A DNA stretch of 64,000 nt. Source: a virus. The position numbers were made by a program, and so were the translations under genes. Location of the stretch: positions 54,554 to 118,553 of the IMG/VR virus record IMGVR_UViG_3300042503_001836; one strand, given 5' to 3'. Positions 1 to 43,056 of the stretch are shown piece by piece. How positions within the stretch are numbered: position 1 is the stretch's first letter; each line of letters begins with the position of its first letter. Below the pieces are notes generated by a model. It did no database searches. It saw only the letters and a list, made by a program, of their open reading frames with translations, and had not been told where the DNA came from.

Positions 1-748
1 GATCACAACCACGTCCAGGTACACCCCTGGTAGTAGTCAATGCTGCGGGTAAAGTAGTATTTACAATCTCGATCCGGTCTTTTGATAGTTGGTCAAGTGA
101 GGATACGCCACAATCCCTTCTAATTTTATAAATCGTCCAGAATATCTCTTTCAGATTATTGATGTGCTTGAAGGCGTTTTTCTGTACCTGTGGAGGCAAA
201 ACTGCTAAATCCTGGTAGTAGCTTTTGCCGTCCCTAAACTCTAGGAGATGTTGCCAGATATCGGAAATGTGATCTCGGAAGTATTCTAGATTAGCTACTT
301 TATGATCCGTCCTCCTTAACATTTCCGCAGTGATGTCTAGACGGTCGTGTAAGGAGTCCAAATCAGTCTGCCCTCCTAAATGTACCTGAAACCCGGTAAC
401 GTGCTGTATATAGGCACGTAGTCCAATATGCCCAATAGAGACTAGAGATTTTATTGCTTCGGAGTTCCTTTCTATTTCTGCATAGTAGGCAATTATCCCA
501 AAAGCATAATTGCTGTCAAAAAGATTCTGATGCCCAAAGACATCTAGCAGATATTGAGATTCTGTCTTTTTGTAAAAACATTGAAGCGGTTCATAGTTAG
601 ATAATGTTTGTCTTACGTTATTGACTAATCTACCTACTGTAGTTTGATGCACTCCAGATAGTTTAGCGATCGCTTCCTGATTTAACCCAGTTTGACCACC
701 ATCCAAGGCAATGAAATACTGGTCATCCTTAAAAAATTGGTACGGCAT
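1..748 (-). CDS. Partial phage regulatory/antirepressor-like protein with N-terminal HTH (runs off left edge)
   Basis: Manual translation from ATG at 748: MPYQFFKDDQYFIALDGGQTGLNQEAIAKLSGVHQTTVGRLVNN..., open to the window edge; NQEAIAKLSGVHQTTVGRL is HTH-like. Not in the ORF track because there is no stop in the window. Confidence 0.6.
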   Translation of the reverse strand, partial: MPYQFFKDDQYFIALDGGQTGLNQEAIAKLSGVHQTTVGRLVNNVRQTLSNYEPLQCFYKKTESQYLLDVFGHQNLFDSNYAFGIIAYYAEIERNSEAIKSLVSIGHIGLRAYIQHVTGFQVHLGGQTDLDSLHDRLDITAEMLRRTDHKVANLEYFRDHISDIWQHLLEFRDGKSYYQDLAVLPPQVQKNAFKHINNLKEIFWTIYKIRRDCGVSSLDQLSKDRIEIVNTTLPAALTTTRGVPGRGCD

Positions 749-753
749 ATGTT

Positions 754-978
754 CTATGGTTGTGTTTGCTGTTCTAACGCTTGTTTCATAACCTGAAATA
801 CTTTCTTGATTCTGGAATAGCTTGCTGTTTCATAGCCAGAATCAATCCAAATGCGGACTCGTTTATAGCTAAAGCCTGTCTCACTTGCTAATTGTCTTTT
901 AGACCATCCCAACTGCAAGCGCATCAATTCCAGTGTTTCATGCAACTTGTTAATGTCAACCTGTCTTAAGTCTAACAT
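754..978 (-). CDS. Small XRE/Cro-type HTH protein
   Basis: LRLQLGWSKRQLASETGFSYKRVRIW is an XRE-HTH pattern; 74 aa. Confidence 0.75.
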   Translation of the reverse strand: MLDLRQVDINKLHETLELMRLQLGWSKRQLASETGFSYKRVRIWIDSGYETASYSRIKKVFQVMKQALEQQTQP

Positions 979-1301
979 AAAAAAAGTCCTAAAAAGTCCA
1001 CTATCTAAAATATATCAGAAAACGTGCTTTCTTTATAAAAATAAATAAAACAGCACCATTACACTATAATTTCCTATCTGTCAATCAGTAATTTTTTGAA
1101 AAACTCTATTTTTGCACGATACTTCAAATCTTTATACAGTAATAGTTTTAATGCCAGACGGTAGGAATAAACAAAGGTATCTGCACTATAGTATACAGAT
1201 ATACAGCAATATAAAAAATACTTAAATAAATAGCTGAAACTATTGATATATAAAGCTTTTCACTTTTAATGTTTTTTAGTAAGTGATGTTATTAACTGTA
1301 G

Positions 1302-1365
1302 GGTGATCCAAAAGTTCTAAAAACGATAGCTTATATATTATGATTTTCTCAACTTTTGGATCACC
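1302..1365. repeat. Inverted repeat GGTGATCCAAAAGTT-N34-AACTTTTGGATCACC
   Basis: Perfect 15-bp arms; a related element lies at 52860-52910. Confidence 0.9.
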
Positions 1366-1714
1366 TTAGCTTTTTTTGCTATTTTTCTCAGTAAATTATA
1401 AGTAATCCGTATTAAAAATAACTTTAGTAAAAAACATATTAAAAACTATATTTTAACTCCTAGAATACTTATATAAAGCCCACTCTGTTATTACAAGTCG
1501 GCGCGGAAATTCCAATTAGCTAACTATAAACACTTAATTAGGTAATTTATAAAACAGTAAGCAGTTAGTATAGTAATTATGTACTAAAGTAAAAATTGAC
1601 AGCACAAATGTTTGAGCATTTTTAGTTAAAAAAACTTTTTAATGCCCGGTTTTCTATTTAATTTTTTAAGCCGTAATAAACCCTATGGATAACTGACATC
1701 CTATCCACTAGATG

Positions 1715-2562
1715 TCAAGGGCTATAGCTGGCTGTTAACCTACAGCCAGAGTTACTTTAGTTTCTTCAAATTAATCAGGTTGCGAGCCGTCATTCTTTTT
1801 AGTCCCCTCAGATAAATCTGTTTTACCCACAGATGGGAGTCAAATTACCTTTTAACCAATAGGCTTGTCTGTTTTTGTTTAGGATTCGCGGTCTTCAACA
1901 TACTTCATCCAAGACGCTAAGTGTCGTTTAGCTGCGTCCTATTTACTTGATCAGCTAGGTTACTGATATGTGGGTGTTTTTACATCTTGCTCTGATGGTT
2001 TTTGCGCTTATACAGTCGCACTTTCGATACCCAATAGAATTTGCTAACATCTACACCGCCGCACCTGGAGTCATTTATTTCTAAAAGTAGTTCCCATTGT
2101 CGTTTCAATCCAACTCCCTATTAAGAGAGTATTTATACATTCCCCTTGTCTAGTTAATACCTAATGTTCATGGAAATCGCGCTCAAATATGGATCTAGTT
2201 TTTTGGTTCAATCCCTTCAGTAAAGTCTCACTACCTTACTAAATTTTTGATATCCCCTCAAGTCCGCCCAATTATATTGTCCCCATTTCAGGGTATCGTC
2301 ATGGCCAACGCAATCTGCACTACTTTTTTATTGATTCACTTTTAATCCTTACAGGATTTAGGTCTCAACTAGAATCCGCCACGCGCACGCATACGGACTA
2401 GAAGCAATTTCCAATTAAAAACTAAATGAGAGTCTTTAATTTTCAAGCCGGGTAATGACTTCACCGACTCATCTTGCGTTCCTTACTGGTCTAGGGCTTT
2501 TATAATAAACGCTGAGGTGTGTTACAACGCTCGATTGTTTCGCCTATCAGATTTATTCGATT
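1715..2562 (-). ncRNA. Candidate large (~850 nt) structured non-coding RNA
   Basis: No ORF of 60 aa or more; GC raised over the AT-rich flanks; near-consensus promoter directly upstream; more than 10 hairpins whose mismatches are G-U pairs on the minus strand; ends near hairpin CTGGCTGT-AGGTTA-ACAGCCAG. Boundaries approximate. Confidence 0.65.
2102..2138 (-). CRISPR. Solitary CRISPR-like repeat GTATAAATACTCTCTTAATAGGGAGTTGGATTGAAAC (copy 1, inside the ncRNA)
   Basis: 37 nt, 7-bp hairpin, 3' ATTGAAAC handle typical of class 1 repeats; 35/37 identical to copy 2. Confidence 0.7.
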
Positions 2563-2568
2563 AAATAT

Positions 2569-2597
2569 AATATAACACGGGATAAAATAAATGTCAA
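2569..2597 (-). promoter_or_regulatory. Sigma70-type promoter TTGACA-N17-TATATT driving the ncRNA
   Basis: Exact -35, 17-bp spacer, near-consensus -10; no ORF downstream. Confidence 0.75.
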
Positions 2598-2610
2598 CCC
2601 CATATAAAAT

Positions 2611-2640
2611 AAAAAAACCTAGTAATTTTGTACTAGGTTT
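2611..2640 (-). terminator. Intrinsic terminator AAACCTAGTA-CAAAAT-TACTAGGTTTTTTT
   Basis: Hairpin followed by U-tract on the minus strand. Confidence 0.75.
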
Positions 2641-2714
2641 GAGTTCTTATTACTTAGAATTAATTAAAACTAGGGGCTTTTCTGTTGCGGTTTCTGATAT
2701 CTTAGCTGGTTTAT

Positions 2715-2751
2715 GTTTCAATCCAACTCCCTATCAAGGGAGTATTTATAC
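2715..2751 (-). CRISPR. Solitary CRISPR-like repeat GTATAAATACTCCCTTGATAGGGAGTTGGATTGAAAC (copy 2)
   Basis: 37 nt, perfect ACTCCCT/AGGGAGT stem, ATTGAAAC end; lies between ORF 2801-3070 and a terminator. Confidence 0.7.
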
Positions 2752-2800
2752 CATAAGCTTGTGTTTTATGGTTTCTAAATTCATTTTAACACAAATGTGC

Positions 2801-3070
2801 TTACTTGACTTCAAATACATAACCAGATTCAGTTACTTTGACTAATCTCAATACAGTATCAGTCCCGTCTTTTTTCAGGCTACCTTTCCACGCTAGGCAA
2901 CCAAAAGATGTTTTATCTCGAATGTCTTCCGCTTCCTCTAAAAGCTGTTTGCATCTAGTATTATACTTTTTCCAAACATCCTCTATTTTGCAGGATGTAA
3001 ACTTAGCTACAATTTTGTTATTAGCAGCTAAGATATGGTATTCTGTTTTTTCTGTATTTCTTAAAGTCAT
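2801..3070 (-). CDS. Small orphan protein (89 aa), candidate anti-defence protein
   Basis: Strong RBS TAAGGAG upstream and its own promoter; function inferred from context only. Confidence 0.7.
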   Translation of the reverse strand: MTLRNTEKTEYHILAANNKIVAKFTSCKIEDVWKKYNTRCKQLLEEAEDIRDKTSFGCLAWKGSLKKDGTDTVLRLVKVTESGYVFEVK

Positions 3071-3182
3071 CTTATTCTCCTTATTTTTTTTTAACTTGAC
3101 ACAACTCGGGATAATGCCTAATTTTAAGAGTCACCTATTTAAGGCGATGTTTGGTTTACCTTTGTTTTTTAACCACACTAAT

Positions 3183-3211
3183 AATATAACAGCATTTAAA
3201 ATTAATGTCAA
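3183..3211 (-). promoter_or_regulatory. Sigma70-type promoter TTGACA-N17-TATATT
   Basis: Same design as the promoter at 2569-2597; precedes ORF 2801-3070. Confidence 0.7.
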
Positions 3212-3417
3212 GCATTTTATAAAACTATTTTAGAAGTATAAAATATTATACATAAGTTATAAATATTTAAATGTTATACATAATACACTCGGATCAAGAC
3301 TTATACAAAATCGGGATATCTCACAATCCAGAAAACAAAACCATTCTAGGTAAATCAGAATAGTTTAGGCTGTGTCCTGAAACCTTAGAATGGCTAGATG
3401 AATTTTTGAACAAACAC

Positions 3418-4050
3418 TTAACTTCTAATTCTGTTTACTGAAGGAAACCCACCAAATCTTAAAGTATGCCCGTGATATTGTTTACACGCGTCTAAATCTT
3501 TTCTACAGGCTCTATTAGCTGGTGTAGTAGGATTGCCAAAGATGTCAAAATTAAGATTAATAGGTGCTTGACAATCTTGATCGCCTAATTGCCACTGGCA
3601 TCTTTTAGAATATACCCTAGCTGGTAGTTTCTTTCTTTCTAATGAGTAGGGAGTTAGGGAAAATGTAAATTGATTTTGATATTCTCCAGTGTACTGATTA
3701 ATCTTTAAATTTAATTCATAGAATTGTGTAGAGTCAGCCGTAGGTTTATCGTCTAAAAACATAGGCTGCGTACGTTTTACGTTTACGTCCGCACCGATAA
3801 CAAAATAATTATCAATTACATCTCCAACTAAACCAGATATATCAGAAACTATTAAGGATGCACGTGCTTCTACACTTTCACCTGATTTGCTAAAACTACT
3901 AATTTTACAAGGAAAACCTTGATAAATAGTGTTACTAAAACTTACAGTTCCATAGTTACAGATTTTAATATCAAAATCTTGGTTTCTGATATTAATTAAA
4001 TCTATAAATATTTCGGTGTCTAGCTGTTGGGCATTGGATATTAAACTCAT
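3418..4050 (-). CDS. Lambda gpL-like tail tip protein
   Basis: LPARVYSKRCQW...C...CRKDLDACK...RFGGFP C-terminal Cys motif of gpL; likely start MSLISNAQ at 4050. Confidence 0.9.
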   Translation of the reverse strand: MSLISNAQQLDTEIFIDLINIRNQDFDIKICNYGTVSFSNTIYQGFPCKISSFSKSGESVEARASLIVSDISGLVGDVIDNYFVIGADVNVKRTQPMFLDDKPTADSTQFYELNLKINQYTGEYQNQFTFSLTPYSLERKKLPARVYSKRCQWQLGDQDCQAPINLNFDIFGNPTTPANRACRKDLDACKQYHGHTLRFGGFPSVNRIRS

Positions 4051-6778: not shown

Positions 6779-7771
6779 TTAAGGAATATGTGCTGCAAAA
6801 GACCCTAATGACAAATTTGCTCCAGCACCACCAGAGTTTACGTTTCCTATTTGAGTAAAATATCCTTGTTTAGTCGTGTAATCAACCATCACGTAGGCAT
6901 TCTCCCCACCAATCCAATAAGTATTCAATCTTATCGGTGCTTGAAACATTTCTACTGGAAAATTAATAATAGGGCTGTGACCTCTTGCTCCTAGTTCTCC
7001 ATACCAGACAAAAGATTGAACAAGATTGTTCAGCGTATAAAAATATCTTTGGCATTTTTGCAATTCAACGGCGTAATCATCACAAACAAAAGCAGTAGCA
7101 GTAGATCCCTCCTCTAGTTTAGGTCTGGCAATTACCCATGTACCGGAAGTTTGCGCTCCTACCCTTAGTCTTACTTCCAATCCGTTAGATACCTCAGCAG
7201 GTAAGGTTACAGTAGCACTATATCTTGTAAGTGTTGAGTTTACTGTCCATGTTCCACTTGCCACAACTGTCTGAGTAGGGGATGCTATTGTACCATGCGC
7301 ATCTACTGTAGTGGATGGTCTAAAAAATTCCCACGTCACAGTTGATAATTGTGAATTTGATAGTTCTACACTCAAAGTCACTTGCTTTGAGCGCAATCTA
7401 ATTGCATCAATGGATTCTATTCTTTGTAATACATGAATAGCCGTAGTTGATGCTGCACCTCCTAGAGTTAAAGTTTGATTAGCCGTGCTAAAAGCGTAGG
7501 TAGGTGTACCACCAGATGCAGCAATACACCACTCTGTTTCACTAGGGTATCCTAAAGATGCCGTAGGTAAAGTAAGAGAGTTAGTGAGTGTACCTGATGA
7601 TCCAGCACCTTGGATCACAGCAAAAGCAGGATTTTTAAAATAATTTGGATTATTTAATTGAATAGCGACACTCAGTTTAGCTGGTGTCACTGCACCGTCT
7701 GCTATCTTAGCCGTCGTAATTGATCCATCTGGAACTGTACCACTACCAGAATTATTAATGATGATTCCCAT
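6779..7771 (-). CDS. Tail fibre / receptor-binding protein
   Basis: DGSITTAKIADGAVTPAKL repeat; KLEEGSTATAF...ELQKCQRYF motif common in fibre proteins; lies in the tail module. Confidence 0.75.
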   Translation of the reverse strand: MGIIINNSGSGTVPDGSITTAKIADGAVTPAKLSVAIQLNNPNYFKNPAFAVIQGAGSSGTLTNSLTLPTASLGYPSETEWCIAASGGTPTYAFSTANQTLTLGGAASTTAIHVLQRIESIDAIRLRSKQVTLSVELSNSQLSTVTWEFFRPSTTVDAHGTIASPTQTVVASGTWTVNSTLTRYSATVTLPAEVSNGLEVRLRVGAQTSGTWVIARPKLEEGSTATAFVCDDYAVELQKCQRYFYTLNNLVQSFVWYGELGARGHSPIINFPVEMFQAPIRLNTYWIGGENAYVMVDYTTKQGYFTQIGNVNSGGAGANLSLGSFAAHIP

Positions 7772-14329: not shown

Positions 14330-14511
14330 AAAACACCACTGTATTACCGGGAATATTTGCCACGCTTAGTACCATATTAGCCCTAGCTGTATTGTATGCC
14401 CCTAACTTATCAGATGCTAAAAGCAGTGGCGCGTTCAATATTTCCCTAGCTTTAGCTTCAGGCAGTGCCGGATTAGCAGTATCAGATAAAGAAAAGCATG
14501 ACCACAACTAA
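14326..14511 (+). CDS. Small two-TM membrane protein, holin-like
   Basis: Two hydrophobic segments and a charged tail; ATGA overlap with the portal stop. Confidence 0.5.
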   Translation: MKNTTVLPGIFATLSTILALAVLYAPNLSDAKSSGAFNISLALASGSAGLAVSDKEKHDHN

Positions 14512-14671
14512 ATTCACTCCTAAACCTGAAACATTACCACCCATAGGTGATCTGATGACAGAATTAACTTTAAATACAGATGTAGTAGAAAACATCCTTA
14601 AAGAGTTCATAGATAATCCGCCTATACCAGAATTAGCTAATTTAATATTAGCTGAACCCGATGATGATTAA
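14498..14671 (+). CDS. Small acidic hypothetical protein (57 aa)
   Basis: Manual translation MTTTKFTPKPETLPPIGDLM...AEPDDD; below the ORF-track cutoff. Confidence 0.55.
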   Translation: MTTTKFTPKPETLPPIGDLMTELTLNTDVVENILKEFIDNPPIPELANLILAEPDDD

Positions 14672-14710
14672 TATTTGTAGTAGAATATGAGAACCATCTT
14701 TTTAATCTCA

Positions 14711-14751
14711 AAAAAAGCAGTTAGCTAATCATAGCTGACTGCAATTTTTTT
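14711..14751. terminator. Bidirectional terminator between convergent genes
   Basis: GCAGTTAGCTA/TAGCTGACTGC stem flanked by A- and T-tracts. Confidence 0.75.
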
Positions 14752-14768
14752 ATGTTGATTTAGATATA

Positions 14769-17700
14769 TTATCTGTTGTAAGGATTACCACGATTAATAG
14801 AACCGCCTACTCTCATTTCCCGACGAATACCATCTGATACCATCGCTTGTACAGCCTGTGACAGTCTGTAGGTATCTACTTCAGAATCACTGCCAACCTC
14901 AACACTTACAGGAACATTTATAGTTGTCGTATTGCCAATCTTAGATGCCATACTACCGTTACCACCTGCACCTACAACACCACCATTAGCAAACCCAGCC
15001 ACACCGCTTTGCAACTTATTCCAAATAGCGGTTTCTTTGTGGTTAAGAACCCGTTCACCTTCAGAAGCAACTATTAAATGAGGCTTACGTCCAGTAATAG
15101 ATCGCTCCTTATTCATTACCCCAACTATCCCGCCATCAGCAAACATTGGTAAAGTAGCAAAACCAAAATCTGTAGGAATAGCATCAAATAATCCAGGCGT
15201 AGGATTAAATCCCATAGAATTGGCATTAAACACAGAACCAGAGAGAATATCAAAAGTGCCACCAAGAAGACTGCTAAAAATATCACCACCCGCGTCCATT
15301 GCTGTGTTTGCCACAGTTTGACTACTTAATGTTAAAGCAGCTTGCATCAACATTTGCCCAGCTTGGTTTAATGTCATACCTGCCAGGTTGAGTCCATTAG
15401 CACCAACACTCAAATCAGCTAAACCTTTAACAGCATTTATACCATCAGTTGGTTTTTCATCTTTCTTTTTATTTCCAAACAATCCCTCAGTCCAACCAAA
15501 TAGAGCATCAGTCATGCGTTTAGATGCCATATCAGCTAGAGGATCAAGGAAACCTTTCATAATAGAGTTAAATAGATCACTTACGGACTCGCCAAACCCT
15601 TTTGTACTTAATAGGAACTCCTTAAACCCGCCCCTAAAGCTACTTGTGACACCTTTAACCACAGTTCCTAACTCAGAGAATTGTAGTTTAATAGCGTCTA
15701 GTTTTGCTTCATTAGTCAGCTTGAGATTTTCCCGTAAAGTATTAATCTGTTCATTAGTTAACTTATTAGCTTCCGTAGCTTCAGCGTTCTTTCTAATAAA
15801 ATCATCTAACTGAAGCGTAGCCTTAGCAAAATCCATCTGTTGATTATTAATAGCCAATTGCTTATCAATCTTTTCAGCACGGAAATCAAGACCATAGGCT
15901 TTGAGTAGAGAACTTCTAGACTCTTGTACACCTTTAAATGAATCCTGGATAAATTGCACTCTTTCTAATAATCTAGAAGGAATATTTGCATTTTCAGCAA
16001 TACGATCATTTTTTTGTTTTAACTCAATATTTTGTTTATTGCGTTCAAATTCTTCCTTAACGTAGTCCCTTCTTTTCTTAGCTTCTTCAGAAGAAATAGA
16101 CCGACTATTTTCTTCATTTGTAATAGCATTAAGTTTTTCTTTATATTCATTCTCGGTATTTAATAAAGCTAGGTTTGCTTCTAAATCAGCAGTTCTAGCA
16201 GACCTTGGATCAAGTGGGTTTAATTGCTGTAATAGTTTACGCTGTTCAACTTGTTTTTGGAGTAAACTAATTCGGAGTTTTTCAGTTTGTAATGTAACTC
16301 CTGTTCGTCTAGATATTTCCTCTCTATTAAATTGTTCTACTCTTGCTTCAAGTATTTTAGGAGTATTTTGATTTAATTCAGCTAATGCTTTTTTAGCTTG
16401 TATATTCTGAAGTACAGTAGTTTTAAAGACCTCGTTATTTGTATTAATTGCGTTAAGTGCCTGTTCAGGACTGTCTGGAAATTTCTCTAAAGATGCAACA
16501 AAAGCAGCTTTTAGTAATTTTTCATTGTCAATTACACCTTGAGTATCACGAACTGTTTTTTCTAACGCTTCTCTCTTTTTCTCTAATGAACGAATAAGCT
16601 CTTGATAGCCAATCAAGAATCGTTCAACATTACTCATGTTGGGAGACAAGCCCTCTCTTATAGTTTTCCAAATATCTAAATCAGTATCTTTCATACTGCT
16701 TTGAATTTGAAACATAGATTCAGTAGTTTGTCTAAGTAAACGATATAACCCTAACAATTGCTGTGTTCTGTCTGTTAATAGCTGGGACTCAGTATTCATA
16801 GAGTTGGCTGCATTTTGTCCATCGGCTGTATTGAATTTAAGATTTGTTGCATCTGTAACATTTGATTGCATTTCGTCAGGAGTAAGAGTCCCGCCAGTAT
16901 TAACTAGTTGATTCAACCTATTAAGATTTTCTTGATAAGTCTTTAAGAAATTACCATGTTGTCCTTGGGGTGTTCCTTGTCCTTTATATGCACTTCTATT
17001 CTTACCCGACTGGATACTGGCATAATGTAGTGCAAGTTTATTTAATACAGATGTATCTACTTGACCTTTCAAAACTTGATCTAAAACACCTCTAGATTTT
17101 AAGGAATGAATAAAATACAAATCTTGCATACCCGGGCTAAAGCTTGGTTGATCCTGACCTTGATAGTCTGTCAACTTAAACATATCCGGCATGGCATTTT
17201 TACCAAACTGTTTTTTAGCCGCTTGGATAGATGCGTTAAAGTTCATCATCTGATAGCGTCCGGCTGCAGTGCTACTGTTGTTAATCCACTTAATCCAAGT
17301 TGGTTTCCTACCAGTTCCCACATAGGGATGTTTAGAGAAATCAGTAACATTCTCACCACCAATCGTTAGACCATAGCCAAAGTTCCTAGTATTTTTTCTA
17401 AAATCAGAACCCTCAGCATTAGCCACAGCATTAGCCAAAGCTAAAATATACTTATTCTTACGCAGTTCATAAAGTTGTTTACCAAGTGGGGTTAGTTTTG
17501 CATACTCTTCAGGGCTTAAGTCATTACCACCTTGAGATATTCCTGAAGAATTTTTAATACCTATCGTACCAGGTACAGGCGGTAATATGGGAACGGGTTG
17601 TCTTTTTGGCAACGGCTTAACCTGTGATGCGACATTCTTAGCTATTTCTACCGCACCAACAGCTTGATCAAAGACAAAACTCTTAATACCCGTACTCTTT

Positions 17701-20700
17701 AATGCTTGCTTAAATTTATTAAATTCTGCTTCGTTAGCAAATACAATACAACCACTAGAGCCAGGATCAACAAGTCTGTCCTTATCAATGTGGAAACCAA
17801 TAGCGGTTCGTTCTGTTTTAAAATCAGGTTCAAGTCTTATAAACTCATTCCCCATTTTAGCCTTATTGCCGCTAGGAGTAGTTTTACCAAGTCTATAACT
17901 ACCAAACTCTACAGGTTGTTTAGACCCTGCTTTTGTTTCACCTGCACCACCAAATATTTGAGTATCCGCCTTACCTGAATTAACAATAAATCTATCAACT
18001 ATCTTTCCTTGTTTAATGACGGCTAACTGGATTTTTTCTAATCCAAATTCATCTTTTTGTCCCAATCGCTGCATCCTGATTACAGATTCACCCTTGGACT
18101 GACTGGCAGGAGTAACAGTATTAGCTTTAGTTTTAGCAGTTGCCGGAGGTTGGGAAGCGATCGCACCATAATCACCCTTAGCTAAATTAGCAAGGAACAC
18201 TTGAGGGTTAATATAGCGTCCGTTTGCCTTAACCCCAAAATCTAGATGATGTCCTAATACATTACCCAGTTTTTGCCCAGCTTGTACTTGTACAGGTTTG
18301 CTCAAGTCACCAAGAGTATTTTTGATACTATTAAGTGCTAAGTGTCCATACTCTATAGTTATCTTTGTACCCGATGGTAATATACTATTAACAAACACAG
18401 CAGCATCTTGTCCGCCCCATTTTTGCAATTTAGCTACACCTGCAAGACTAGCAATAACTTCTGCACCAGCACCACCCTTAACACGACTGTCAAAATCAAC
18501 CTTATTGTGTAAACGTCCTGGACGTTGACCCATGACACTTTGTCCAAAGGTGGGTTTATAGTTAATCAAATCTTGGATAGTCGTATTTTTAATAGGTGAT
18601 GTAAATTGATTTGCTACTGTAGGTATAACCGTTGGTGCTGGTGTTGCTGATGCTGCATCCTGTGTTGTAGGTGGCGTTATAGCTGACGATACAGCCGATG
18701 TTATACCACCAAACACACGACCTACAGTGTTTAGTAAATTACCTGCCCAGTCAGAAGAGTTATTTTCATTAGTGACTTGATTTAACTTACCTAAAGTTAC
18801 ATCTAACTTAGTTCCTACGCCCGTCACAGTATCACCAAGTCCCTTAAAGGCATCGTTAAGACCACTAGTAGCTATTACTGCGTCTTGTCCTAAAGACTTC
18901 ACAACCTCTTGCACATCAGAGTTTATACCAACAACACTACCCTGAACTGTTCTAAGTTGATCGTCAAACTCTTTAATTTTATCCTCATCAAAAGGAACTA
19001 TCTTACCTGGTAGACTTCGTTGTAATTCACTAGCACGAAGCTTAATGTCATCAATATTATTTTGATAATCAATTTCCTGTTTTTTAGCATCTAACTGACG
19101 TTTTTCCATCTCCGTAGTTTGAGAGATAATATTAATAAGCCCCTCAATAAATTGAGTGTAAATGTTATCGCCAGCACCTATCAAAGCTTCTCTAAGCTTG
19201 TTTTGCATCCTAGATCCTTCTAGGGTTTTTTGTGCTTTTTGGAACTCTATGCTTACCGCTTGCGCTTCCCTAACAGAAGCTCTATAGTATTCAGCTACTT
19301 GTTTAGTCTGGTCAATCAAAGCCTGTTTCATATCACGCTGGGCTTTGGCCATTTCTTGTGAGTTTTGAGCTAATGCCTCTCTATCTTTAGTAATATCGCC
19401 TCTTAACTTATCAAATTCCGCTTGTGCTTCATTTAAGTTAGTACCACCAGCCGCAATAACTTGGCTTATCTTGTCTAAGGCAGCTTGATCACTATTAATC
19501 TTTTCAGTTAATAAAGTGCGTTGGCTGCTTAAATCAGCTAGTTGAATATTTGATAATTCCGGTGCTATTTGTTGCGCTGTTCCCGATGATGCGTAAATTT
19601 TAGCCTGACTTAAATTAGACTTAATCCTATTAGCAGATGTAGCACGCTCAAATCTAGTATTTGCATCCTTAACAGCATTGGTAGCTTGGGTATATAAAGC
19701 CTCTTCCATAGGTCGGACATCAAACGGTTTTGCCCCAGCAATCATGTTTTTAAGCTGGTCAATTCGTGCTTGAGTCTTTTGGACAGCAGCAGGAATTAAA
19801 TTTCCTGTAACACCTTCAACCGCGCCTAGCTGTAACTTTTGCTTATATTCTTCTTCCTGTTTAAGCATCCGTTCCAACATAGGCAACGGTGATCCAAAGC
19901 TATTAACTAGATCCTCACGTTTTTTGTAAAGTTGTTGAATTAATTGCTTAACCTCACCTTGTTCCTTACGAACCTTATCACTCGGTAACGCCTTGTTTAG
20001 TTCTACACTTCGTTTAGTTGCTGCCTCTAGTTGTTTGTCAATATTTTTAATCTCTTTAAAATCAAACGCACGTTGTATAGAGGTTTTGATAATGATCTCC
20101 TGATTTTTCCTTTGATTTTCTAATGCTTGTAATTCCTCTTTAGCTTTTTCATATTCTTCTTTAATTTTTTTATCCCGTCTATTAAAGAAAGTAGGTACAG
20201 TCAACTTTTCAAATTCAGCTTTCTTTTGCGGAATTTTTTTATCAAGATCCTCCATAATTTTTCTATTTTCTAGACGATCACCTACTTCAAACTCAGAGGA
20301 TTTGATAGCCAAAGTATTCCGCATCTGTTTAGACTGATTTTCTAAGTTTTTAAAATCAGCACTGTTTTGTATATCTTTAATTTCTTGAGGACTAGCACCT
20401 CTAGCTTTTGCATCGGCTAATACAGCTAATCTTCTATTGTTGTTATCCTCAATTTGTCTGTTAAGATTTGATATATCTTTGTTAGCATTAAATTTTTGTT
20501 GCTGTTCTATTGTCAGTGGTTTGATATCAGCTACAAAGTCACTAGGTTTACCAGTAAATCCTTGACTAGACGCAAACTCTTTTAAGTTTTGGATATTTTT
20601 TTCTTGATCCTCAAAATATTTGATAACCTGTTGTTGCGCGTTAGTTAATCGGGCGTTTGGATCTTCTGTATCAAAATAGCTTTTTATTCCTTTGTTTTCT

Positions 20701-23700
20701 GGTTTGTTAAGAAACTCTTTTTGTTTGTCTGTTAGTTTAGGTGCAAATAAGTCAAGAGCCTTAGTGGCTAATGTTATAGCAGCAATGAAAGCAACAACCG
20801 CAGTAAGAATAATAGTAAGAGGGTTAGCAAAAAGAGGTGCTAAAAGCATAGCTAGTTTACCTATAAGAGGTACTGCCATGAGTGGCCCGGATGCACCTGA
20901 AGCAATCAAGGCAGCATTGGAAGCCATAGCGGTAGACGCAGCCACAGAAGCCGCAGTAGTAGCTGAAGCTAAACCTACATTAGCAGCATACGCAGCACCA
21001 GCACCAGCCACACCTAAAGCACCTACACCAAGAAAATCCATTACTGGATTAGCTTGACCTTTATTTCTTGCCTTGATTGCATCATCCCATTTAAAGTCAC
21101 CACCACCCCAGAAGCTTCTAATGTCAAGCTGTACGCCTTTAGAAGGTAATGTGTCAGCTAGTGATCCGCCTAACTTTTTAACATTGTTAGTTGCTTTATC
21201 AAAGGAGTCCGCCGTTTTTTGAACATTGGCTCTAATCTCAGTCAAACCGTTATTTAGTTCCTTAGTTGCTTCCTTGAGTGAATCACCCATAGGATTGCTA
21301 AAGTCACCTTTAGAGAACATCAAGATAGCAAAAGCGACCCCTATATGAGTTAATGCTTTTCCTAAGAATCCTAATGAAGCCGCAAACAGTTTATTTCTTG
21401 CAATTCCGGCATCCATAGCTGCATTAGCCGCACCCATTGAAGTTAGCATTAATTCACTAGCAGCTTTCATTGTAGTCATGAAGCCTATAAAAGCCTTTGC
21501 TGAACTACTGAACATTCCTGCGGCTGCACCAACTACACTCGTGATCATTGGCCAAAGAGCCATTTTTACTAAAGCCGTAGCTTGTTCAAACATGAACACC
21601 ATTGCTAGTAGTTCTACAACTCCTGGAGGAATGACTTTAAAAAACCCACTAAATACACCTTTAAGCCCGTCAATTATATTACCCGCTTGTTCAGCACCTT
21701 GTACTAAGCTGCCAAACATAGATGAAAAGCTAACATTACCATCACTCATAGACCGCATAACAGAATCTATAGTGCTAAAAAGTGCTACAACAAGATTACC
21801 TACACCACTATTCATGTTAGAAATTAGGTCTTTTTCTGCACCTAACCAGTTGTCAGCAACATCCGCAGTAATGCCAACAATTAAAGGCATCATGTTAGTA
21901 GCCATAACTGAAAAAGTTGCCATTAATAGGTGTTGCAAAGATCCAAGTAAAGTAACCAAGGGTTTAAACTTAGTCATAATTACTGTTAACCCTATTGCTA
22001 TGGTTGCAGCAAAACCAATGGCAAAAGATTGACCTAAAGGTATTAATGCTCCAAGACTCTTACTGAACAAAGATAAGCCATCAGCAAAAGTGCTAACAAA
22101 GAAACCTAGAGTTCCGCCTAACTTATCAGTAAATATTGTGGTTATTTCAAAACCCACATTACCTAGTTTATTTAATGCAACAACTAGCCCACCCGCTTGA
22201 CTAGCAGCCGAATTACCATAATCTTGTTTGAGTACCTTAGCAACTTTAGGTAAGATATCCTGAGATAACACACTACCAGATGAGATGAGAGCGTTCATTT
22301 CTGGTACTGACACACCCATAGCCTTAGCAAATACACCCATAGCTGGCGGGAATTTTTCGCCTAATTGCTGTCTTAATTCTTCCATTGACAGCTTACCTTT
22401 AGCCAGAATTTGAGTATAAGCCATGAAGACTAAACTTGCATCTTGACCAGTAATACCTAACGCGCTTAGAGATGCTGTTATACCTTCAAACAAATCTCTG
22501 ACACCTTGTCCTTCCATCTTACTATCTCTAGCTGCAATAGCTAATTGAGAATAAGAATTAGCCGCTACTTCAGAAGGAACATTCATTTTATTAGCAATGT
22601 CTTTGGCATACTTAAATTCTGCCTCGCCACCTGCCTTAGAGCCGCCTAAGAAAGTAAACCTTCTTTGTAATACTTCTACTCGCTGAATACCGTCCATTAA
22701 TCTAGCGACATGGGGTGAAACCATACTAACAGCCGCACCTATACCACCAATAATCGGAGCTAGAGGTAAGAATAAGGGACTTAAGGAAGCAAACAAAGAT
22801 GTTACAGGTGCTAAAGTTGCAGCAATAGACCCCATAAATTGCAACACATTCGGGAAAGTTGCGTCAGCTTCTTTTGGATCGCTAAACAGAACTTTTTTCA
22901 CACCAGATCCCATCTGGTTGTACATTTCCTTAAATTGATCCTGGGTAGCTACAGTACCCCGACTCATGCGCTTAAATATGACTCCAACAGCATCACCAAA
23001 GTTAGCTTGACCTAGTGCTTTTTTAGCATTGTATTCCAGGTCGTCTTTAGCGTTAGCAAGGTTACGTACAGAGTCTTTAAAACCTTCGGCTATAGATTTA
23101 CCCATATCAAAGCCTTTTTCCTTAAACTTAGCTTGTAAGCCAGTTAAGGATGCCATCAAACCCGCGGTAGCCGTATCTAAAAGTTTAGGATCGATGTTTT
23201 TAAGTTGCTGTGAAGACATACCAGCTTTTCTCAAGCCTTCTAGTAATAAGCCTTTCATAGCTTCTTGATCATTACCAGCATAGGCTTCGGTAAGTCTGCC
23301 AACAAAACCAGTAGAACGTGGAGCATTAACCAAACTTTGACGGAAAGTATCTAACCCACCAGAATCTCGCATCTGTTGGAAAGTTTTAAAAGCTACGCCA
23401 CGCTCACTTAAAACCTTTGCTGTAAGTGAGTCTAATTTACCTTGTGCTTTATCATCACCTAAAACTGCTCTAGAACGTTCAATATCACCCATTGCTTGCA
23501 TAAGTTTACGCTCATTATTGGTTGCCGCAATAGGATTATTTAGAATGTTTTGGCGTGCTGCGTCTAACTGTGCATCAGTCATAGCATCACGGGTAGTTTT
23601 ATTAACTCCACGTCTGCGTAACGCTTGTTTTGTCATAGCATCTAGCACTTGTGGAGATATAGGACTGAACTGCGATACCCCTTCTAAAGCCTTTTCTACT

Positions 23701-26700
23701 TTGTTTCTTTGAGTACCAAGAGAGTTAATTGTATTTACTATTGTTCCTGATTGTTGTTTTAGTTTATTCCCTGTTAATCCTTGTATAACAGAAGTAGGAA
23801 TCATAGGAATATTGAGATTTTCTAAAACACTGTCTATGGCAGTATTACCTAAATTCTCAATTAATTGTTGACTCGCTTGAGTACCTTTAGCATTACCTAA
23901 TCCTGCTTTTTTGCGATTAGCCGATGTTTGTTCTTGTAAAACTTGTTCAACAGTAGGAGCTTGGTTTCTAGGATTTGATCTTGATGATTGATCCAAACCT
24001 AAGATCCCACCAAAAGTATTCATGAACATTCCAAACATACCTAGTCCCATTGATGCAAGACCACCACCACCAACAATTGATGGTAAAGGGAACATGCTAG
24101 GGACAGGATTCATCATCTGGGATATGCCACCTAGTATCCCGTGTGTTTTTTGTCCAGATAACGAAGATAAATCTATTCTGGTAACAGAACTTAGTAATTT
24201 TGTTAAGAAACCACCGGGTTTTAAGACATCATTATTAAGTAAGTTCTTAATAATTGCGTTACCCAAGCCTAAAGTTAAGCCACCAAGTACAGGTATCAGT
24301 GGTTTTAGCATGGGTACAAGTTGCAATGTCTTGGGTATGAATTTCATAAACCAAGGCATTATAGAGCGAGTTTGAGACAACAGACCTTGATAAAGTGGCT
24401 GTTTTAAAGTATCAGCAAGAGAGAATAACGCCGCGTTTACAGCATTACGCATCACCTGGCCTAATGAAGCATAACCAGAAAGTGTGCTTTGACGGACACT
24501 ATCACTAACAGCAGTAAATAAATTAGTAATTAAGTCTTTACCCAGACTCAAATACTGACTCATCATTGTTGGTGGTACTGGAGGTATGGGCGGTGTAGGG
24601 GGTGTGGGTGGTGATGGCGGAGATGGCGGTGTGGGTGGTGATGGGGGTACTGGAGGTACTGGAGGTACAGGAGGTACTGGAGGTACAGGTCTAGGAGGAA
24701 CAGGAGGTACAGGAGGTCTAGGAGGAACAGGAGGTCTAGGAGGTACAGGAGGTACAGGTCTAGGAGCAGTAGTCCAAGGATCTGGAATTTGTGAATAACT
24801 ATCAAATAACCGGGACATATTACCAGCCATTAATGCATTTAAGTTAATACGTATGGGTGGGTAGGGCTGTGTAGCTTGTGTTCTAGTTGATAAGTGAGGT
24901 CTTGTTTGCTGAGTTTGCTGAACTGTACTAGCTAAATTAGTTCTTTGCTGTCCTAAGTTTCTATTTGTTGCAGGCACATTTTCAGTATTCTGTGCTTCAT
25001 AGTCTTCAGGTAGAGAATTAACAGCTCGCTTAGACTGTTGTAATATACTTGATATCTGTGGTTTAAAATAATTAGATAAGCCAAGGTATGCCGCTATTGA
25101 TTTACCTTCTATTACACCTTCTGCTAAATCTTGGGCAACATTAAGATCCTTTGATTTGTTATACTTACCTTCTTTGTAACCTTTAGCAATTGTTTGATGA
25201 TATGCGTCTATATTAGCCGCATAGTTAGCTACAAGAGCTTTTTGAGATTCTGTGGCTGTCTTACTTTCATTAACTGTTTTAACCATTAAATCAGCAATTC
25301 TCTTGTTAGCTAAGACTAAAGCAGCCACAGCACCATCTTCAAAACCCTCACCAAAATCTAGACCCATTTCTAGCATAACTTTTGATGGGGATGCAATCCC
25401 AAATATTCTTTTAATCGTAGATAATATACCTGTAGCAAACTTAGTAACTATCCCTAAAACGCCACCATTTGCAGACAAGAATCCTTGTCCAAAAGAAGTT
25501 ATTAAATTAATACCAATGTCTTTTAAACTTCCGCCTTTGCTAAATGCAGATTTGGCACTGTTAAATAAATTGCCTAAAATAGTATCACTGCCAAAGTCTT
25601 TTTTAACACCTGATAATAGATTAGATAGAGGGTTTGCAGGTTGATCAAACTCTTCTAGATAAGATTTAATTTCTGGGTGTTGTGTAAACGCATTATAGTC
25701 AGCATTTGAGTTAAAAGCAGTGCGTGCTTTTTCTTGTAACTGTTTAAGTTTTTCAGATGAAACCGTGTGTGATTGAATGTAAGGTTTTCCACCAATAATG
25801 GAATGTGCCTTATCAGATAATTGAAATTCTTTTTGTTGTGGATGACCACTCAATGCAAAAAGAGTATTATTATCATTGTCTACTTTTCCATAACCCTTGT
25901 ACTTGTCTAGATACTTCAAGCCCATGTTTTGAGCTAACTTAGGATGTTTCAATAAGAAATTATTTAATTTGGTAGCAATACCGAAGGGTGTACTAAACCC
26001 AGTCATTAAATTTGTATCGTGCGTCCAGTCATAGACATCGCTTATCTGTAACCCACCCTCTTTATTGCGTCCATAATTAAAACCGCCTAAAGTGTAATGT
26101 AAATTTTTAAATCCGGGTATTTGACTAACTTCATTGCCTACAGTACCACTACCCACTTCCCAATTTGAAGGAATTTTAGTTGTTTTATTTTTTGAAGCAA
26201 AGTCAAGCATAGACCTGTACATTACTGCTAGTTCTGCCTCTCTAGCAGTACGCCCCTGCAATTTATGAACATCAGTATTTCCTTGATAATAAGCACCTAA
26301 ATGTTTAACTGGTTCTGATAGTTTATTTCCTAGTATGCCAGTATTTCCCAGTGCAACCATAGATGCGCCAAGTATTGATCCAAAAGTTGTCTTTTTCTCA
26401 TGTTTATTGCTTTGCTCATAAACACCCTTAGTAGCTTTAGCACTACCATCAACGGCATTTTCAACAATGGAATCATATGTATTAATGTTCTCAGAATTAA
26501 ATAAATCTAATTCTTTAATTCCCGTATCCACAGCTTTCGCTAATAACTGACTAGCACCTGATACATCAACAACACCTTGTTTAATACCAATAGCCAGACC
26601 TGACGCAATCATTACACCCAAGGCAATCATCACCTTTGAAGGTGAACTAATGCCCATGTTTTGTTTAATCTGATTTTGAATAGCGTCACCAGTAGTATTT

Positions 26701-29700
26701 ATAGCTTTAGAAGATAAGGCAACCGTGCTTAATATACCTTGGCTCAAACCTTCGTTAGTCTGTTTACCGATCTTAATGAAATTATTTAAGGGTGAGTGAA
26801 GTTTTGCACCTAGTGACCCCACAACATTAGCTATTCCTTGAGGTGCGCCATAATCTGCAACACTAGAAGCTATAGCATCTTTCACTGGTAAACCCTGACC
26901 AACTTTAGATTTAGATTTTCTATATAAATCTAAAGGTACAGACAAAGTATCAACAACAGCATCAACACCATAACCAGCAGTTGCAAAATTAGAATTTGCA
27001 CCAGTACCTAAACCTGTAGGTACAACCTTCATGACACTGCTAATGGCTCTTACTATTTCACTCTTACTGAGTTTAAGGTCTTTCAAATTGTCATTTAAAA
27101 CACTCTTAAACGTAGACATATAATCAAGGGAAGTATCAGCTTGTAACTTCGCCTTAGTTTGTCCATGAGCTTGAGTAACAGCTTTAGTAATAGCACTATT
27201 TCTTAATAATGCGGTCATACCAGCTTGAGCAGCATCAACGGCACTGACAGTCATCGGATTAGCACCAAGACCTAACGCGCCAGCTTTAGCAATATTTATA
27301 GTGTGATCAAAAGCCGCTCTAGGTGTAGTCAAAGTTTTATCAGCAACAATGCTATTTACAAAATCTTTAGCAGACCCACCTACAGACTGAAATAAAGTTT
27401 CACTAGGGTTTGCTGCATGCCGTTCTCCAACCTTACCTAGTATTTTCAATCCCGTATCCGTAGCACTTAGACCAGCACTTCCATACGTGCTAATTGATGT
27501 AAGTCCAGGTATTACACTGGTTGCACCAAGAGCTGGATCAGCAAAGGTTTTTACTGCACCTACAATATCAGTTACAGTTGATACCATTTGTCTTGCACCT
27601 TGAGCAACCTTGCTATTACCTTTTTGCATTCCCAAAAACAAACCCGAAGTTATCATCAGACCCATCTCAAACATCAACCAAGATGGTGACTGGATCTGCA
27701 TTTTGGTTTGGACTACTTTAATAAAGTCATCGAGCATAACACGGGCAGCATTGGACACCCCACCTGCACCATGTTTAATCCCGTTTTGCAAACCTTTAGG
27801 AATTTCTACTCCATGCTGTTGTGCTAACTCTGTATAACCCTTTAATTGCTGATCAAATAGTTTTTTGTCAGCGAGGTTTAACTTGCCTTCTAAATGTCCC
27901 GCGTTTTTTCTATTATTTTCTAGAGGTGATTTAGCTCTGCCGTGAATCCCGCTTAATTCACTATTAATATCTTTGCTAAAGCCAGCATCCTCACCCATTT
28001 TTACATATTTATCAACAGTAGCAACGGCTTCTTTAGAGCGACTAATAAAAGTAACAACTTCAGCTCTTGCTGATTTAAGTTCTTCATGCGTACCTACTGC
28101 GGTAGCTTGTTTAACTTTCGCCTGTATTCTCTTATATTCATCTGCAAAATATTTTTTAATAGATGTTAATGCTTTATCAATCTCATCTAAGGAAGTCTGA
28201 GCATATTTTTTTGTATTAGCTGTTTTATCAGAAGAAACAGGCGGTAAAGGTATTAATTTATTTTCGGCTGCCGTAGCATCTTTATAGCCTTGGGATATAT
28301 CAATATTTTTAACTATTTCAGATTGAATTGTTTGGAAAAGTGGCTTAATCTGCTCAGGAATATTAACAGGAATTGGTTCTAATTCCCGTTTTTTAGCTGG
28401 TGGGGGTAATGGTACTTTATTTTCCTTAGCTGGTGGCTGCTTAGGTAAAGGTGCTGAATCTTTCCAAGGATCTGAAATAACTTCAGAAACAAAAGGTTTA
28501 CTGGTTTTAGATTTTGATACAGCTTGAGATTCAGATTTCATACCTATGGAGGCATCACTCAAAGCTTTAGCAGCATTTTTTAAATCGGCTGCGGCTTCTT
28601 TAAGTACATCTGAAGAAGATTTAACAACAGGTGTAACAGGCTTATTTAATACACCTTTACTTAAAAAATCTTTAATGATAGGTGCTGTATTTGGTAATAA
28701 TTTATCAAAGGCAATCTCCACAACTTTTTTAGATTCAGAAGCCAAACCTTGACCTATAAACGTACTTGTAGAATCTTTTTTACCACTTTCAGCCGCATCA
28801 AAGAACCAGCCTACAGCATTTTGAACACCAGATGATGAGTTTTGAGTAACTGAACTGGCCGATTTTCTAACTTGTCTAATAGTCGCTAATTTAGCCCTTT
28901 GAGCAATACTCTCAACACTAATATTAATACTGTCAGAAAATGCCGTATTTATTTCTGACACTGTACTAGAAATAACGCTGGGATTATCTTTAGCTATATT
29001 TTCTTTAAATGATTTAACTCCAGACTTACTACTTTTTTTAGTCTTAATTCCTACACCAAAAGAATTTAAAAAACTATCTGCCGCCTTTTCACCAACATCA
29101 CTCATATCAATGTTAGCGTTTTTCTTAATAGATTGGCGCATCCCTTTAGATATTTCTGAACCAAAACCCATTGAGATTCCTTCAAGAAACCCAGTCAATA
29201 AATCTTTACCTGGTTTTAAAATAATACTAACTGCTTGGTCTATTTGACTATTACCCGTAATTTCTTTAATACCTCCAAACATTGTTTTTAATTCTTCCAC
29301 TACTTCTTGAGTGTTAGCATTAACAACACTGTCACTAGATTTTACGCCTTTAGATATTGCATCAATAAAAGCATTTTCAATACTGCTAGAAACACCACTG
29401 ATAGCACTAAGAATACCTTTTTCAATTCCTTCTGCTATCGATTGAGAAACTTCTTGCTTAGAAGAATCTGTAATCTTAATATCTAGATTTTCTTCTGTTT
29501 CAATTATGTATCGCTTACTAGATAAATTACCCAATCTTTGTTCTAATTCATCTAATTTAGTAACATCAGTATTAACAGCTATGGGGTTGCTATCAAAATA
29601 TTTATTAACTTCCTTAAGGTGCTGTACTTTAGTATGTAAATGTTTATTTAAATCAACAAGTTGATCGTCGTCAACATTAACAACAATCGGATTATTATTA

Positions 29701-37688: not shown

Positions 37689-37826
37689 AAAGTGAAAATT
37701 TTTATAACTACAACCATACTAGCAACAATAATATATATTTTCATATTAGTATTAGTGAAAACCACCAATAACCGCGATTTTCACCAATATTCATGTATAA
37801 TAATCAATGAAGTTACAATTTAAAAT

Positions 37827-38090
37827 ATGACTATTATCACGGATGCCAATGTTTATGATAACCTCACAGCAGAAGAAAAAATAGGGATACACATTTTTAT
37901 CTGTAGAGAACAGAAAAATATGTCTAGGAAACAGTTGGCCTCTAAAGTAGGAAAAACTGTAGAAGTCATATCTGCAATTGAAAACTTGTTTCAGCATCGC
38001 GAATCTAGAAGACAATCAATTGCCTATAGCGAAATTGAAGCTATAGCACGCGCCTTAGATATACCTATAAATCAAATTCTCCCTAAATGA
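37827..38090 (+). CDS. XRE-family HTH regulator
   Basis: REQKNMSRKQLASKVGKTVEVISAIEN...IARALDIP. Confidence 0.85.
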   Translation: MTIITDANVYDNLTAEEKIGIHIFICREQKNMSRKQLASKVGKTVEVISAIENLFQHRESRRQSIAYSEIEAIARALDIPINQILPK

Positions 38091-38091
38091 T

Positions 38092-39495: not shown

Positions 39496-39500
39496 CACAT

Positions 39501-42944: not shown

Positions 42945-43056
42945 TGTTTTACCCTTTATTCTTTGTTGTTTTTTTTTGTTTTATCCTGTATGACTAATAT
43001 AGTGGATAGACTATATTTTTGTCAACAGGATTTTAGAAAATATTTTAAGTAGCCTA

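Follow-up and report, generated by a model that had tools for sequence, protein, structure and literature searches.

Two solitary repeats of the CRISPR type, repeat 1 and repeat 2, are described here from a lake cyanophage, the source of the IMG/VR virus record IMGVR_UViG_3300042503_001836. They lie in the stretch of 64,000 nucleotides from position 54,554 to position 118,553 of that record; this whole stretch is called the window, and its positions are used below unless those of the record are named. The nearest known elements in form are the solitary repeat units (SRUs) of viruses, which act as RNA anti-CRISPRs (Racr; Camara-Wilpert et al, 2023, PMC10651486) and include the acrIC5-racrIC1 pair, in the study of which a non-targeting CRISPR RNA (crRNA) also lowered interference. 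An SRU stands alone, without a further repeat, whole or partial, in the ~100 bp around it, and Racr RNAs inhibit interference by way of aberrant Cas subcomplexes. Virus-borne mini-CRISPR arrays aimed at related viruses have also been reported (Medvedeva et al, 2019, PMC6858448; described in PMC11656645). According to a preprint (10.1101/2024.12.27.630466), single repeat units of type I-C give rise to crRNA-like RNAs (crlRNAs) of 48-50 nt, which are processed by Cas5c, bear the 11-nt handle and have no second repeat. Their 3' end is reported to lie in a downstream hairpin, and their 16-bp matches, which adjoin TTC or TTA, to allow for one mismatch at position 6, a position that is unpaired in Cascade. 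The viral Cracr RNAs are treated in a further preprint (10.1101/2024.10.29.618823), and crlRNAs and Cracr RNAs pair over 9-16 nt with a site in the promoter of a cas, toxin or defence gene that is flanked by a protospacer-adjacent motif (PAM). Phage-encoded CRISPR-Cas systems that lack adaptation genes have been reviewed (PMC11656645; see also PMC7162821). The array of the cyanophage CL131 is of the V-U2/TnpB kind and not of type I-C, and our literature search, which left supplementary tables aside, found no report of a cyanophage type I-C system or of repeats knocked into a phage's own genes.

The current view of solitary repeats in phages takes them for decoys that ward off host immunity or for regulators that commandeer the Cas proteins of the host, whereas the phage described here owns the matching cas genes. 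Its two units resemble Racr elements in that a single repeat stands outside arrays, on a phage and behind a promoter, and in the first of them a small open reading frame (ORF), ORF89, and a type I-C repeat share one transcript. They differ in that cognate cas genes and arrays are found on the same genome, that the repeat is a copy of the one in the phage's arrays and agrees with those of host-lineage type I-C loci at just 18/37 positions, that ORF89 has no Acr relative, and that the repeats are knock-ins in a gene and in an RNA gene rather than stand-alone small RNA genes. An earlier note, made from the letters of this DNA alone, had taken the locus for an acr/racr-like operon; with the cognate Cas proteins and 53 array copies of the repeat on the same record, the mimicry is of the phage's own system and not of the host's, and the comparison with arrays of the likely host lineage also speaks against that assignment. 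The likeness to viral mini-arrays is seen in a sibling phage (locus L102), where a repeat-spacer-repeat unit behind the same promoter has a spacer matching the RNA gene of this phage. The units in the window, in contrast, have one repeat each, their 'spacers' are the native continuation of the locus rather than acquired DNA, and the Cas proteins would be those of the phage rather than of the host. With crlRNAs and Cracr RNAs they have in common the single type I-C repeat-like unit, the handle conserved in degenerate copies and a position-6 mismatch, but no promoter target of that kind was found in the phage genome or in host type I-C loci, and no hairpin downstream at the 3' side. The phage agrees with the adaptation-less systems in having cas3, cas5, cas8c, cas7 and arrays, with no cas1 or cas4 found, and in that some of its spacers match host-lineage genomes, whereas dispersed solitary copies of a system's own repeat in early transcripts are not mentioned in the sections of PMC11656645 that treat these systems.

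We propose, as a tentative reading that falls somewhat short of probable, that each solitary repeat makes of its transcript a hard-wired crRNA-like RNA with one repeat, which serves the phage's own Cascade and is directed against the uninterrupted alleles of sibling phages. The comparison with siblings reveals how these repeats originated, namely by knock-in, the old sequence of the locus becoming a would-be guide. It also offers a testable system for the role of repeats that coexist with a phage's own Cas proteins, for homing spread as opposed to a mark of CRISPR escape, and for CRISPR conflict between siblings at a single early locus that is hypervariable.

Solitary copies of the phage's own type I-C repeat

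The repeat, 37 nt in length, has exactly two copies in the window, repeat 1 with no mismatch and repeat 2 with two (Table 1), and none of 100 shuffles contained any match. The two are 35/37 identical; one difference falls in the loop and the other is a C-to-T change in the stem which leaves a G-U pair, exactly as the earlier note had described. They lie 613 bp apart with nothing else nearby within 11 mismatches, and the claim that they do not form an array is thereby borne out. The RNA sense of both is assigned to the minus strand because it is there that the repeat ends in a type I-C style handle of 11 nt.

An interference module of type I-C, complete with cas7, cas8c, cas5 and cas3, is present on the same record, 33-40 kb from the two solitary repeats. 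The locus occupies record positions 14365-23888: arrays with 31 and 22 copies of this repeat flank the genes, of which cas7, cas8c/csd1 and cas5 share a strand and cas3 lies on the opposite one. The Pfam matches are over the cut-off for all four genes (E-values of 1.6e-87 for cas7, 9.4e-61 for cas8c/csd1, 2.8e-26 for cas5 and 1.6e-20 for cas3); at the level of domains, Cas_Cas5d, Cas_Csd1, Cas_Cas7 and the Cas3 helicase pass it and Cas3_HD lies just below (22.7 against 23.1 bits). The profiles of Cas1 and Cas4 had no match in the whole record, Cas2 being outside that search. The statement that class 1 cas genes are absent thus holds for the window but not for the record. Repeat 1 is identical to the repeat of array B (37/37), and repeat 2 differs from that of array A (36/37) solely by the stem C-to-T change, by which the G-U pair is kept.

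Further copies are found outside the arrays. A third perfect solitary copy occupies record positions 7160-7196, in sense, about 100 nt behind another promoter matching the consensus at 11 of 12 positions and within the 5' leader of an operon. Each of the three perfect or near-perfect solitary repeats is in sense, with an 11/12 promoter 100-460 nt upstream of it. Degenerate copies number four (record 195-231, 276-312, 26798-26834 and 26844-26880). The latter two are 9 nt apart, directly 3' of an ORF of 106 aa, and are followed by a further partial handle; the former two make up a degenerate two-repeat unit at the start of the record (195-312), the two downstream segments of which share an internal duplication of about 35 nt.

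The phage Cas proteins are 43-70% identical to those of type I-C loci of the host lineage. Csd1 is present in 12 of 389 Nostocaceae genomes, including three of the 20 at the level of the genus, and the repeats of the host-lineage type I-C loci have only their last 10 nt in common with the phage repeat; the stem-plus-handle pattern of the latter had no match in the species-representative genomes scanned. These results bear on the possibility that the repeats are Racr-like decoys or non-targeting crRNAs, the early transcripts binding Cas5c, Cas7 and Cas8c and diverting them from targeting crRNAs, either to blunt the Cascade of a resident or co-infecting sibling with the same system or to pace the phage's own. 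A transcript on which a solitary type I-C repeat comes after a small ORF has been described for acrIC5-racrIC1 (PMC10651486), the promoters of both units come close to the consensus, searches of the phage genome and of host type I-C loci gave no PAM-compatible target, and tandem degenerate repeats only 9 nt apart cannot guide anything. However, a decoy that matches the phage's own arrays and so little of the host-lineage repeat would strike the phage's own system first, and few host genomes have Csd1. Moreover, the pairing of ORF89 with a repeat is not conserved, being absent from all six sibling loci, no Acr relative of ORF89 was found, and SRUs are, by the definition in the relevant section of PMC10651486, not associated with cas genes. 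We regard a decoy function as unlikely.

Some array spacers point to the host lineage (Table 1). Among the matches listed, spacer A13, one of the 30 spacers of array A, is 100% identical to two genomes of the genus Dolichospermum and 94% to one more, and three of the 21 spacers of array B match Nostocaceae contigs (B07 at 100%, B06 at 94% and B17 at 89%). In the two Dolichospermum genomes the A13 target is a response-regulator gene beside ParA-like genes, for which PHROG gives response-regulator or sigma-like families only. The targets of B06 and B07 are 11 kb apart on the same contig of one further genome (G057), in or near ORFs, and the six ORFs near these protospacers have no PHROG family. 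The 5' flanks of the six protospacer instances of the four spacers are ATC, ATT, ATT, GTC, GTT and ATT. From these we infer an NTC PAM, which stands at the 100% match of B07 and at one of the two of A13; the remaining 100% match of A13 has NTT, as do the imperfect ones. No array spacer matches the phage itself or the sibling fragments. The 54-60 nt upstream of the first repeat of array A (record ~16591-16650) match at least 274 of the 389 Nostocaceae genomes, at up to 96% and often in several copies, and the leaders of the two arrays resemble each other. The array leader looks like a common cyanobacterial CRISPR leader motif, which could let host adaptation enzymes serve the phage arrays.

An interrupted reading frame and an interrupted RNA gene

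The succession announced by the earlier note is found in full on the minus strand: a promoter (P1), ORF89, repeat 1, a terminator, a second promoter (P2) and the gene of a large RNA which contains repeat 2 (Table 1). P1 and P2 lie in a duplicated block of 31 nt, the copies of which are 81% identical, and further members of the P1-like promoter family are found in the early region of the record (52749, 53535 and 44796). The P1 region is 90-94% identical in five sibling loci. ORF89 has no match in Pfam, PHROG or PDB sequences, no PDB fold match with E <0.2 and no informative Atlas hit; its AlphaFold2 model has a predicted local distance difference test score of 74. Its only close homologues number six, 81-92% identical and encoded in five metagenome loci and one viral contig, which are the sibling loci of this study. 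A repeat follows ORF89 in this record only, which, with the want of any match for the protein, further weakens the acr/racr assignment. The siblings have at this place an ORF of 138 aa (L012, L098, L099 and L102) or one of 54 codons (L101), and one contig ends inside the ORF.

Locus L101 is collinear with window 3062-2551 and has 81 nt at the place of the 37-nt repeat, between almost identical flanks. Its intact 54-codon ORF begins at the ATG that directly precedes the repeat in the window, and what follows the repeat here, 'spacer 1', differs from L101 in four codons, two of them synonymously. One of these is a double change between leucine codons (TTG/CTA), which in our reading speaks for a coding past of the remnant. 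From this alignment, repeat 1 is evidently a derived knock-in that replaced 81 nt, the first half of a 54-codon gene behind ORF89, and thereby destroyed the gene.

For the second unit, contigs of three metatranscriptome runs from three studies (X15, X16 and X18) and of one DNA run were aligned to window 600-3500; the evidence is confined to these runs and leaves aside 17 further ones. In all three RNA runs, contigs with depths of 8, 26 and 100 span from about 1729/1754 to 2534/2537, and all three skip 49 nt (2091-2139), with joints at 2090>2140 and 2091>2141. The skipped stretch comprises the repeat together with an additional base and one of the two copies of a 12-nt duplication; relative to the repeat-less form, the copies of the duplication differ once each, at position 12 in the upstream copy and at position 6 in the downstream one. 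The RNA contigs also differ from the window elsewhere, by single-base insertions and by replaced or skipped segments between 1912 and 2040, which indicates that they come from other strains and from a non-coding gene. Judged by these alignments, repeat 2 is to all appearance a derived knock-in too: 49 nt were inserted in an expressed RNA gene, and 12 nt of the target were duplicated. That the RNA contigs lack these 49 nt through their removal from the transcript, or through jumping of the reverse transcriptase between the 12-nt duplicates, is unlikely, since the strains of the three RNA contigs differ from the window elsewhere. The view that the 'spacers' are captured foreign DNA does not survive the comparison, both being remainders, one of the interrupted ORF and the other of the interrupted RNA gene. 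The DNA run contains the inner junctions of both repeats, and it appears to hold the repeat-1 locus both in the repeat-bearing and in an uninterrupted-type form, the latter being deduced from an alignment stop.

The RNA contigs end at 2534-2537 without loose ends, at the very point where the P2 leader of L012 joins a perfect repeat; the sense of the RNA is deduced from P2, as the contigs do not firmly show strand or ends. There is no ORF of at least 45 aa on either strand between 979 and 2590. Rfam gave nothing at the gathering score in the window, and nothing at E up to 1 in 900-3400 or in L102 4600-6200. No homologue of the large RNA was found in the 389 Nostocaceae genomes beyond two short marginal matches, pattern scans of viral and metagenome contigs and a scan of viral contigs with the conserved core were empty, and its thermodynamic signal is weak (minimum free energy z-score of -1.25). 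A non-coding RNA of about 0.76 kb is thus brought to light by RNA contigs in the metatranscriptomes of three studies; more speculatively, it could be a new class of abundant cyanophage non-coding RNA over which siblings fight.

All four sibling loci that reach past P2 (L012, L098, L101 and L102) have a repeat or a repeat-like unit directly after it. L102 alone extends further, and there the repeat-like unit is followed by another, with a spacer of about 50 nt between the two. This spacer matches window 2083-2042, which is 18 nt beyond repeat 2 inside the large RNA, at about 38 of its first 42 nt, and the starts of the spacers in L098 (18 nt) and L101 (6 nt) agree with it. This match suggests that, where this phage has the RNA gene, some siblings have a minimal array directed against that gene. 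Among viral contigs, the repeat and the P2 leader were found in one sibling contig only. Behind the mini-array of L102, a consensus promoter is followed by about 1.2 kb without ORFs or an Rfam match (L102 4880-6110), a stretch that may represent a different large non-coding RNA in place of that of the window.

The shape of the junctions raises the question of whether the repeats could be scars without function. A sibling's Cascade-Cas3 would have attacked the locus, and the damage would have been repaired on the attacker's array by means of the homology between spacer and protospacer; the repeat would come to lie at the start of the former protospacer, sequence upstream would be lost or overlapped, and loss of the PAM would mean survival, the repeat being a neutral passenger from then on. 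Recombination between spacers and protospacers is known, as is the upstream direction of Cas3. Both repeats interrupt pre-existing elements, an ORF and an expressed RNA gene. At its 3' end the repeat in every case borders directly on native sequence, while the junction on the upstream side is different each time, with a loss of 81 nt at repeat 1, a 12-nt overlap and one extra base at repeat 2, and about 440 nt missing in L102 relative to the RNA gene. A fixed 3' junction with a variable upstream one is what repair of a Cas3-damaged target on the attacker's array might leave. More deletions relative to siblings (110 nt and 392 nt) are found at the same locus, and the two forms of the repeat-1 locus that one DNA run appears to contain are consistent with this history. 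On the other hand, a PAM is needed before the former protospacer, and one is found only for the L102 unit (TTT); the flank is ambiguous at repeat 2 (CTA) and unsuitable at repeat 1 (GCG). No array spacer of the record matches the flanks of either repeat, all three perfect copies are in sense behind strong promoters, and the handle part kept in the older diverged copies argues for selection on the class. Scars of this kind seem to us rather unlikely as an explanation. A related scheme, in which a segment made of two array spacers and the repeat between them was copied in by gene conversion, was considered and rejected, the downstream flanks (CTA, GCG) having no PAM; by our own estimate, chance alone would place a PAM-like triplet 33-37 nt upstream of the repeat in ~30-50% of cases.

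Table 1. Positions of the features discussed (window positions, except for the array spacers, which are given in positions of the record)
Feature	Position	Strand	Remarks
Promoter P1	3183..3211	-	TTGACA, 17-nt spacer, TATATT, TG before -10 (extended); 11/12
ORF89	2801..3070	-	orphan small protein
Repeat 1	2715..2751	-	identical to array-B repeat
'Spacer 1'	2650..2714	-	in-frame 3' remnant of the 54-codon ORF
Intrinsic-terminator-like hairpin and T run	2606..2640 (hairpin 2640-2615)	-	ends the P1 unit; conserved in L012, L098, L101, L102
Promoter P2	2569..2597	-	11/12, extended -10; conserved in L012, L098, L101, L102
P2 leader, 31 nt	2538..2568	-	common to L012, where a perfect repeat joins directly
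Large non-coding RNA gene	1729..2537	-	~760 nt without insertion, 809 nt with insertion
12-nt imperfect direct duplication	upstream copy 2139..2150, downstream copy 2090-2101	-	copies 10/12 identical
49-nt insertion	2091..2139	-	contains repeat 2 (2102-2138), array-A type with one stem C-to-T
Conserved RNA core	2042..2083	-	matches the L102 mini-array spacer; preceded by TTT in the window
8-bp hairpin	1728..1749	-	at the 3' end of RNA-contig coverage
HTH (helix-turn-helix) protein, 74 aa	754..978	-	weak HTH_23 match; phrog_4779, E 2e-4; downstream neighbour outside the repeat units
Array spacer A13	record 15631-15665		matching spacer
Array spacer B06	record 22732-22765		matching spacer
Array spacer B07	record 22803-22839		matching spacer
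Array spacer B17	record 23533-23573		matching spacer

Proposed hard-wired guides and other possible functions

In the reading that we prefer, extra-array copies of the phage's own type I-C repeat have been knocked into pre-existing early transcription units with strong promoters. As both repeats are in sense, Cas5c should cut each transcript, and the cut made by the phage enzyme would fall 11 nt before the end of the repeat. The product would have a normal crRNA 5' handle followed by what was formerly the gene's own sequence, now acting as a guide, and this RNA would be loaded into the phage's own Cascade. Such guides would match, by construction, the uninterrupted alleles still carried by siblings and could target them, while the carrier's own copy would be spared, the guide sequence there being flanked by the repeat and not by a PAM. 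The most likely use would be conflict between sibling phages, as with the mini-array that siblings have behind the same promoter. The earlier note had itself raised an alternative close to this, in which mini-guides with one repeat act against rival elements through a Cascade borrowed from the host; in our reading it is the Cascade of the phage that they would use.

The proposal agrees with the sequence of the guides. Guide 2 matches the repeat-less allele of the RNA gene at 34 of 35 positions, the lone difference being at position 6, and guide 1 matches L101 at 33 of 35. It also agrees with the conservation of older copies: the seven diverged copies outside the arrays depart from the array consensus at 37 places in all, only one of which lies within the last 14 columns (binomial P ~5e-7), those of the base of the stem and the 11-nt handle. 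Such a distribution would be expected of copies that have to supply a 5' handle.

Several observations weigh against such a function. The seven copies are partly related by descent, and both repeats of the window are so recent and near-perfect that their own conservation is uninformative; covariation in the hairpin is not significant: one compensatory pair (C-G, U-G, U-A) is seen, and 239 of 500 shuffles do as well. Guide 2 is preceded by CTA in the repeat-less allele, of which the T at -2 fits while an A at -1 occurs in none of the six protospacer instances, and the flank before guide 1 in L101 is GCG, unlike the NTC or NTT inferred as PAM; the comparison is thus ambiguous for guide 2 and fails for guide 1. 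No second repeat or hairpin lies ~35-40 nt behind either handle. The RNA contigs contain only the repeat-less allele of other strains and give no sign of cleavage at the repeats. Nor did the sequence next to the repeats yield PAM-flanked targets above chance, as the earlier note's idea of guides would have had it: in the phage genome, PAM-flanked seed matches of the guides of the solitary units are no commoner than in shuffles, the nine host type I-C loci hold no TTC- or TTA-flanked seed, and guide 1 has neither a near-full match in the 389 Nostocaceae genomes nor a TTM-flanked seed in the 20 genus-level genomes.

A more far-reaching variant sees in the lone repeat a natural gene drive of the CRISPR kind, a homing cassette without a protein which, once in a transcribed locus, makes the adjacent native sequence a guide against genomes without the insertion. 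The phage's Cascade-Cas3 would damage the empty allele of a co-infecting sibling, repair on the carrier's allele would copy the repeat in, and the carrier would be immune because the repeat has replaced the PAM. We hold this variant to be distinctly improbable; were it true, the same logic would explain victims of CRISPR attack that bear the attacker's repeat exactly at the former protospacer.

The sense orientation and the kept handle would also suit repeats that serve in cis as processing sites, Cas5c cutting early transcripts at set places. The ORF89 mRNA would receive a protective 3' hairpin, the large RNA would be halved, and the 5' leader of the operon at record 7160 would be trimmed. 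Of the sense repeats, one does lie in a 3' untranslated region (UTR), another inside a non-coding RNA and the third in a 5' leader, with the promoter about 100 nt upstream, and the parts kept in the diverged copies are those that Cas5c recognises. Yet uninterrupted forms are commoner in the siblings and in the RNA data, which means that the transcripts work without such a site; moreover, it was not a UTR that received repeat 1 but a gene, which was destroyed by it, and no direct sign of cleavage was found. We consider this account very improbable.

The phage, its probable host and the surroundings of the locus

The window is the right-hand 64 kb of a viral record of 118,553 bp, the completeness of which is put at 93% by CheckV. 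The left half of the record encodes a clamp loader, a beta clamp, a polymerase A exonuclease domain, dUTPase, ThyX, thymidylate kinase and a Dam methylase, and a ribonucleotide reductase gene (record 37769-41209) is split by an intein with a LAGLIDADG homing endonuclease domain. Tail genes are located in the window, with a tail-tip protein only ~30% identical to known phages. GenBank phages show zero DNA match to window 1500-3500 or to array A or array B, no tRNA was found in a tRNA search, and a neighbouring protein of 534 aa has no relative among the viral contigs searched. An element with IS200-type TnpA and TnpB lies inside the phage at record 42855-44492. Its TnpB is 95% identical to that of a Cuspidothrix metagenome-assembled genome and 91% to that of a Dolichospermum genome, and the assignment of the host lineage is deduced from these identities together with the matches of the array spacers.

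Downstream of the repeat units, the 74-aa protein with a weak helix-turn-helix match corresponds to the HTH genes that had been noted there. It is not an aca gene of the same operon, as it is placed 1.1 kb beyond repeat 2, past the terminator, the second promoter and the RNA gene.

Upstream, two losses relative to siblings are observed (window 3145-3340 against L012 5240-5927). Compared with five sibling loci, 110 nt are missing inside an ORF of 91 aa, and compared with four of them a whole ORF of 125 aa (~392 nt) is missing between P1 and ORF89; by these alignments, the early locus appears to be undergoing erosion or streamlining. In addition, the top of the terminator hairpin (loop and adjacent bases, window 2615-2640) is inverted relative to L101 3698-3723, and the same kind of variant occurs in the DNA run X2.

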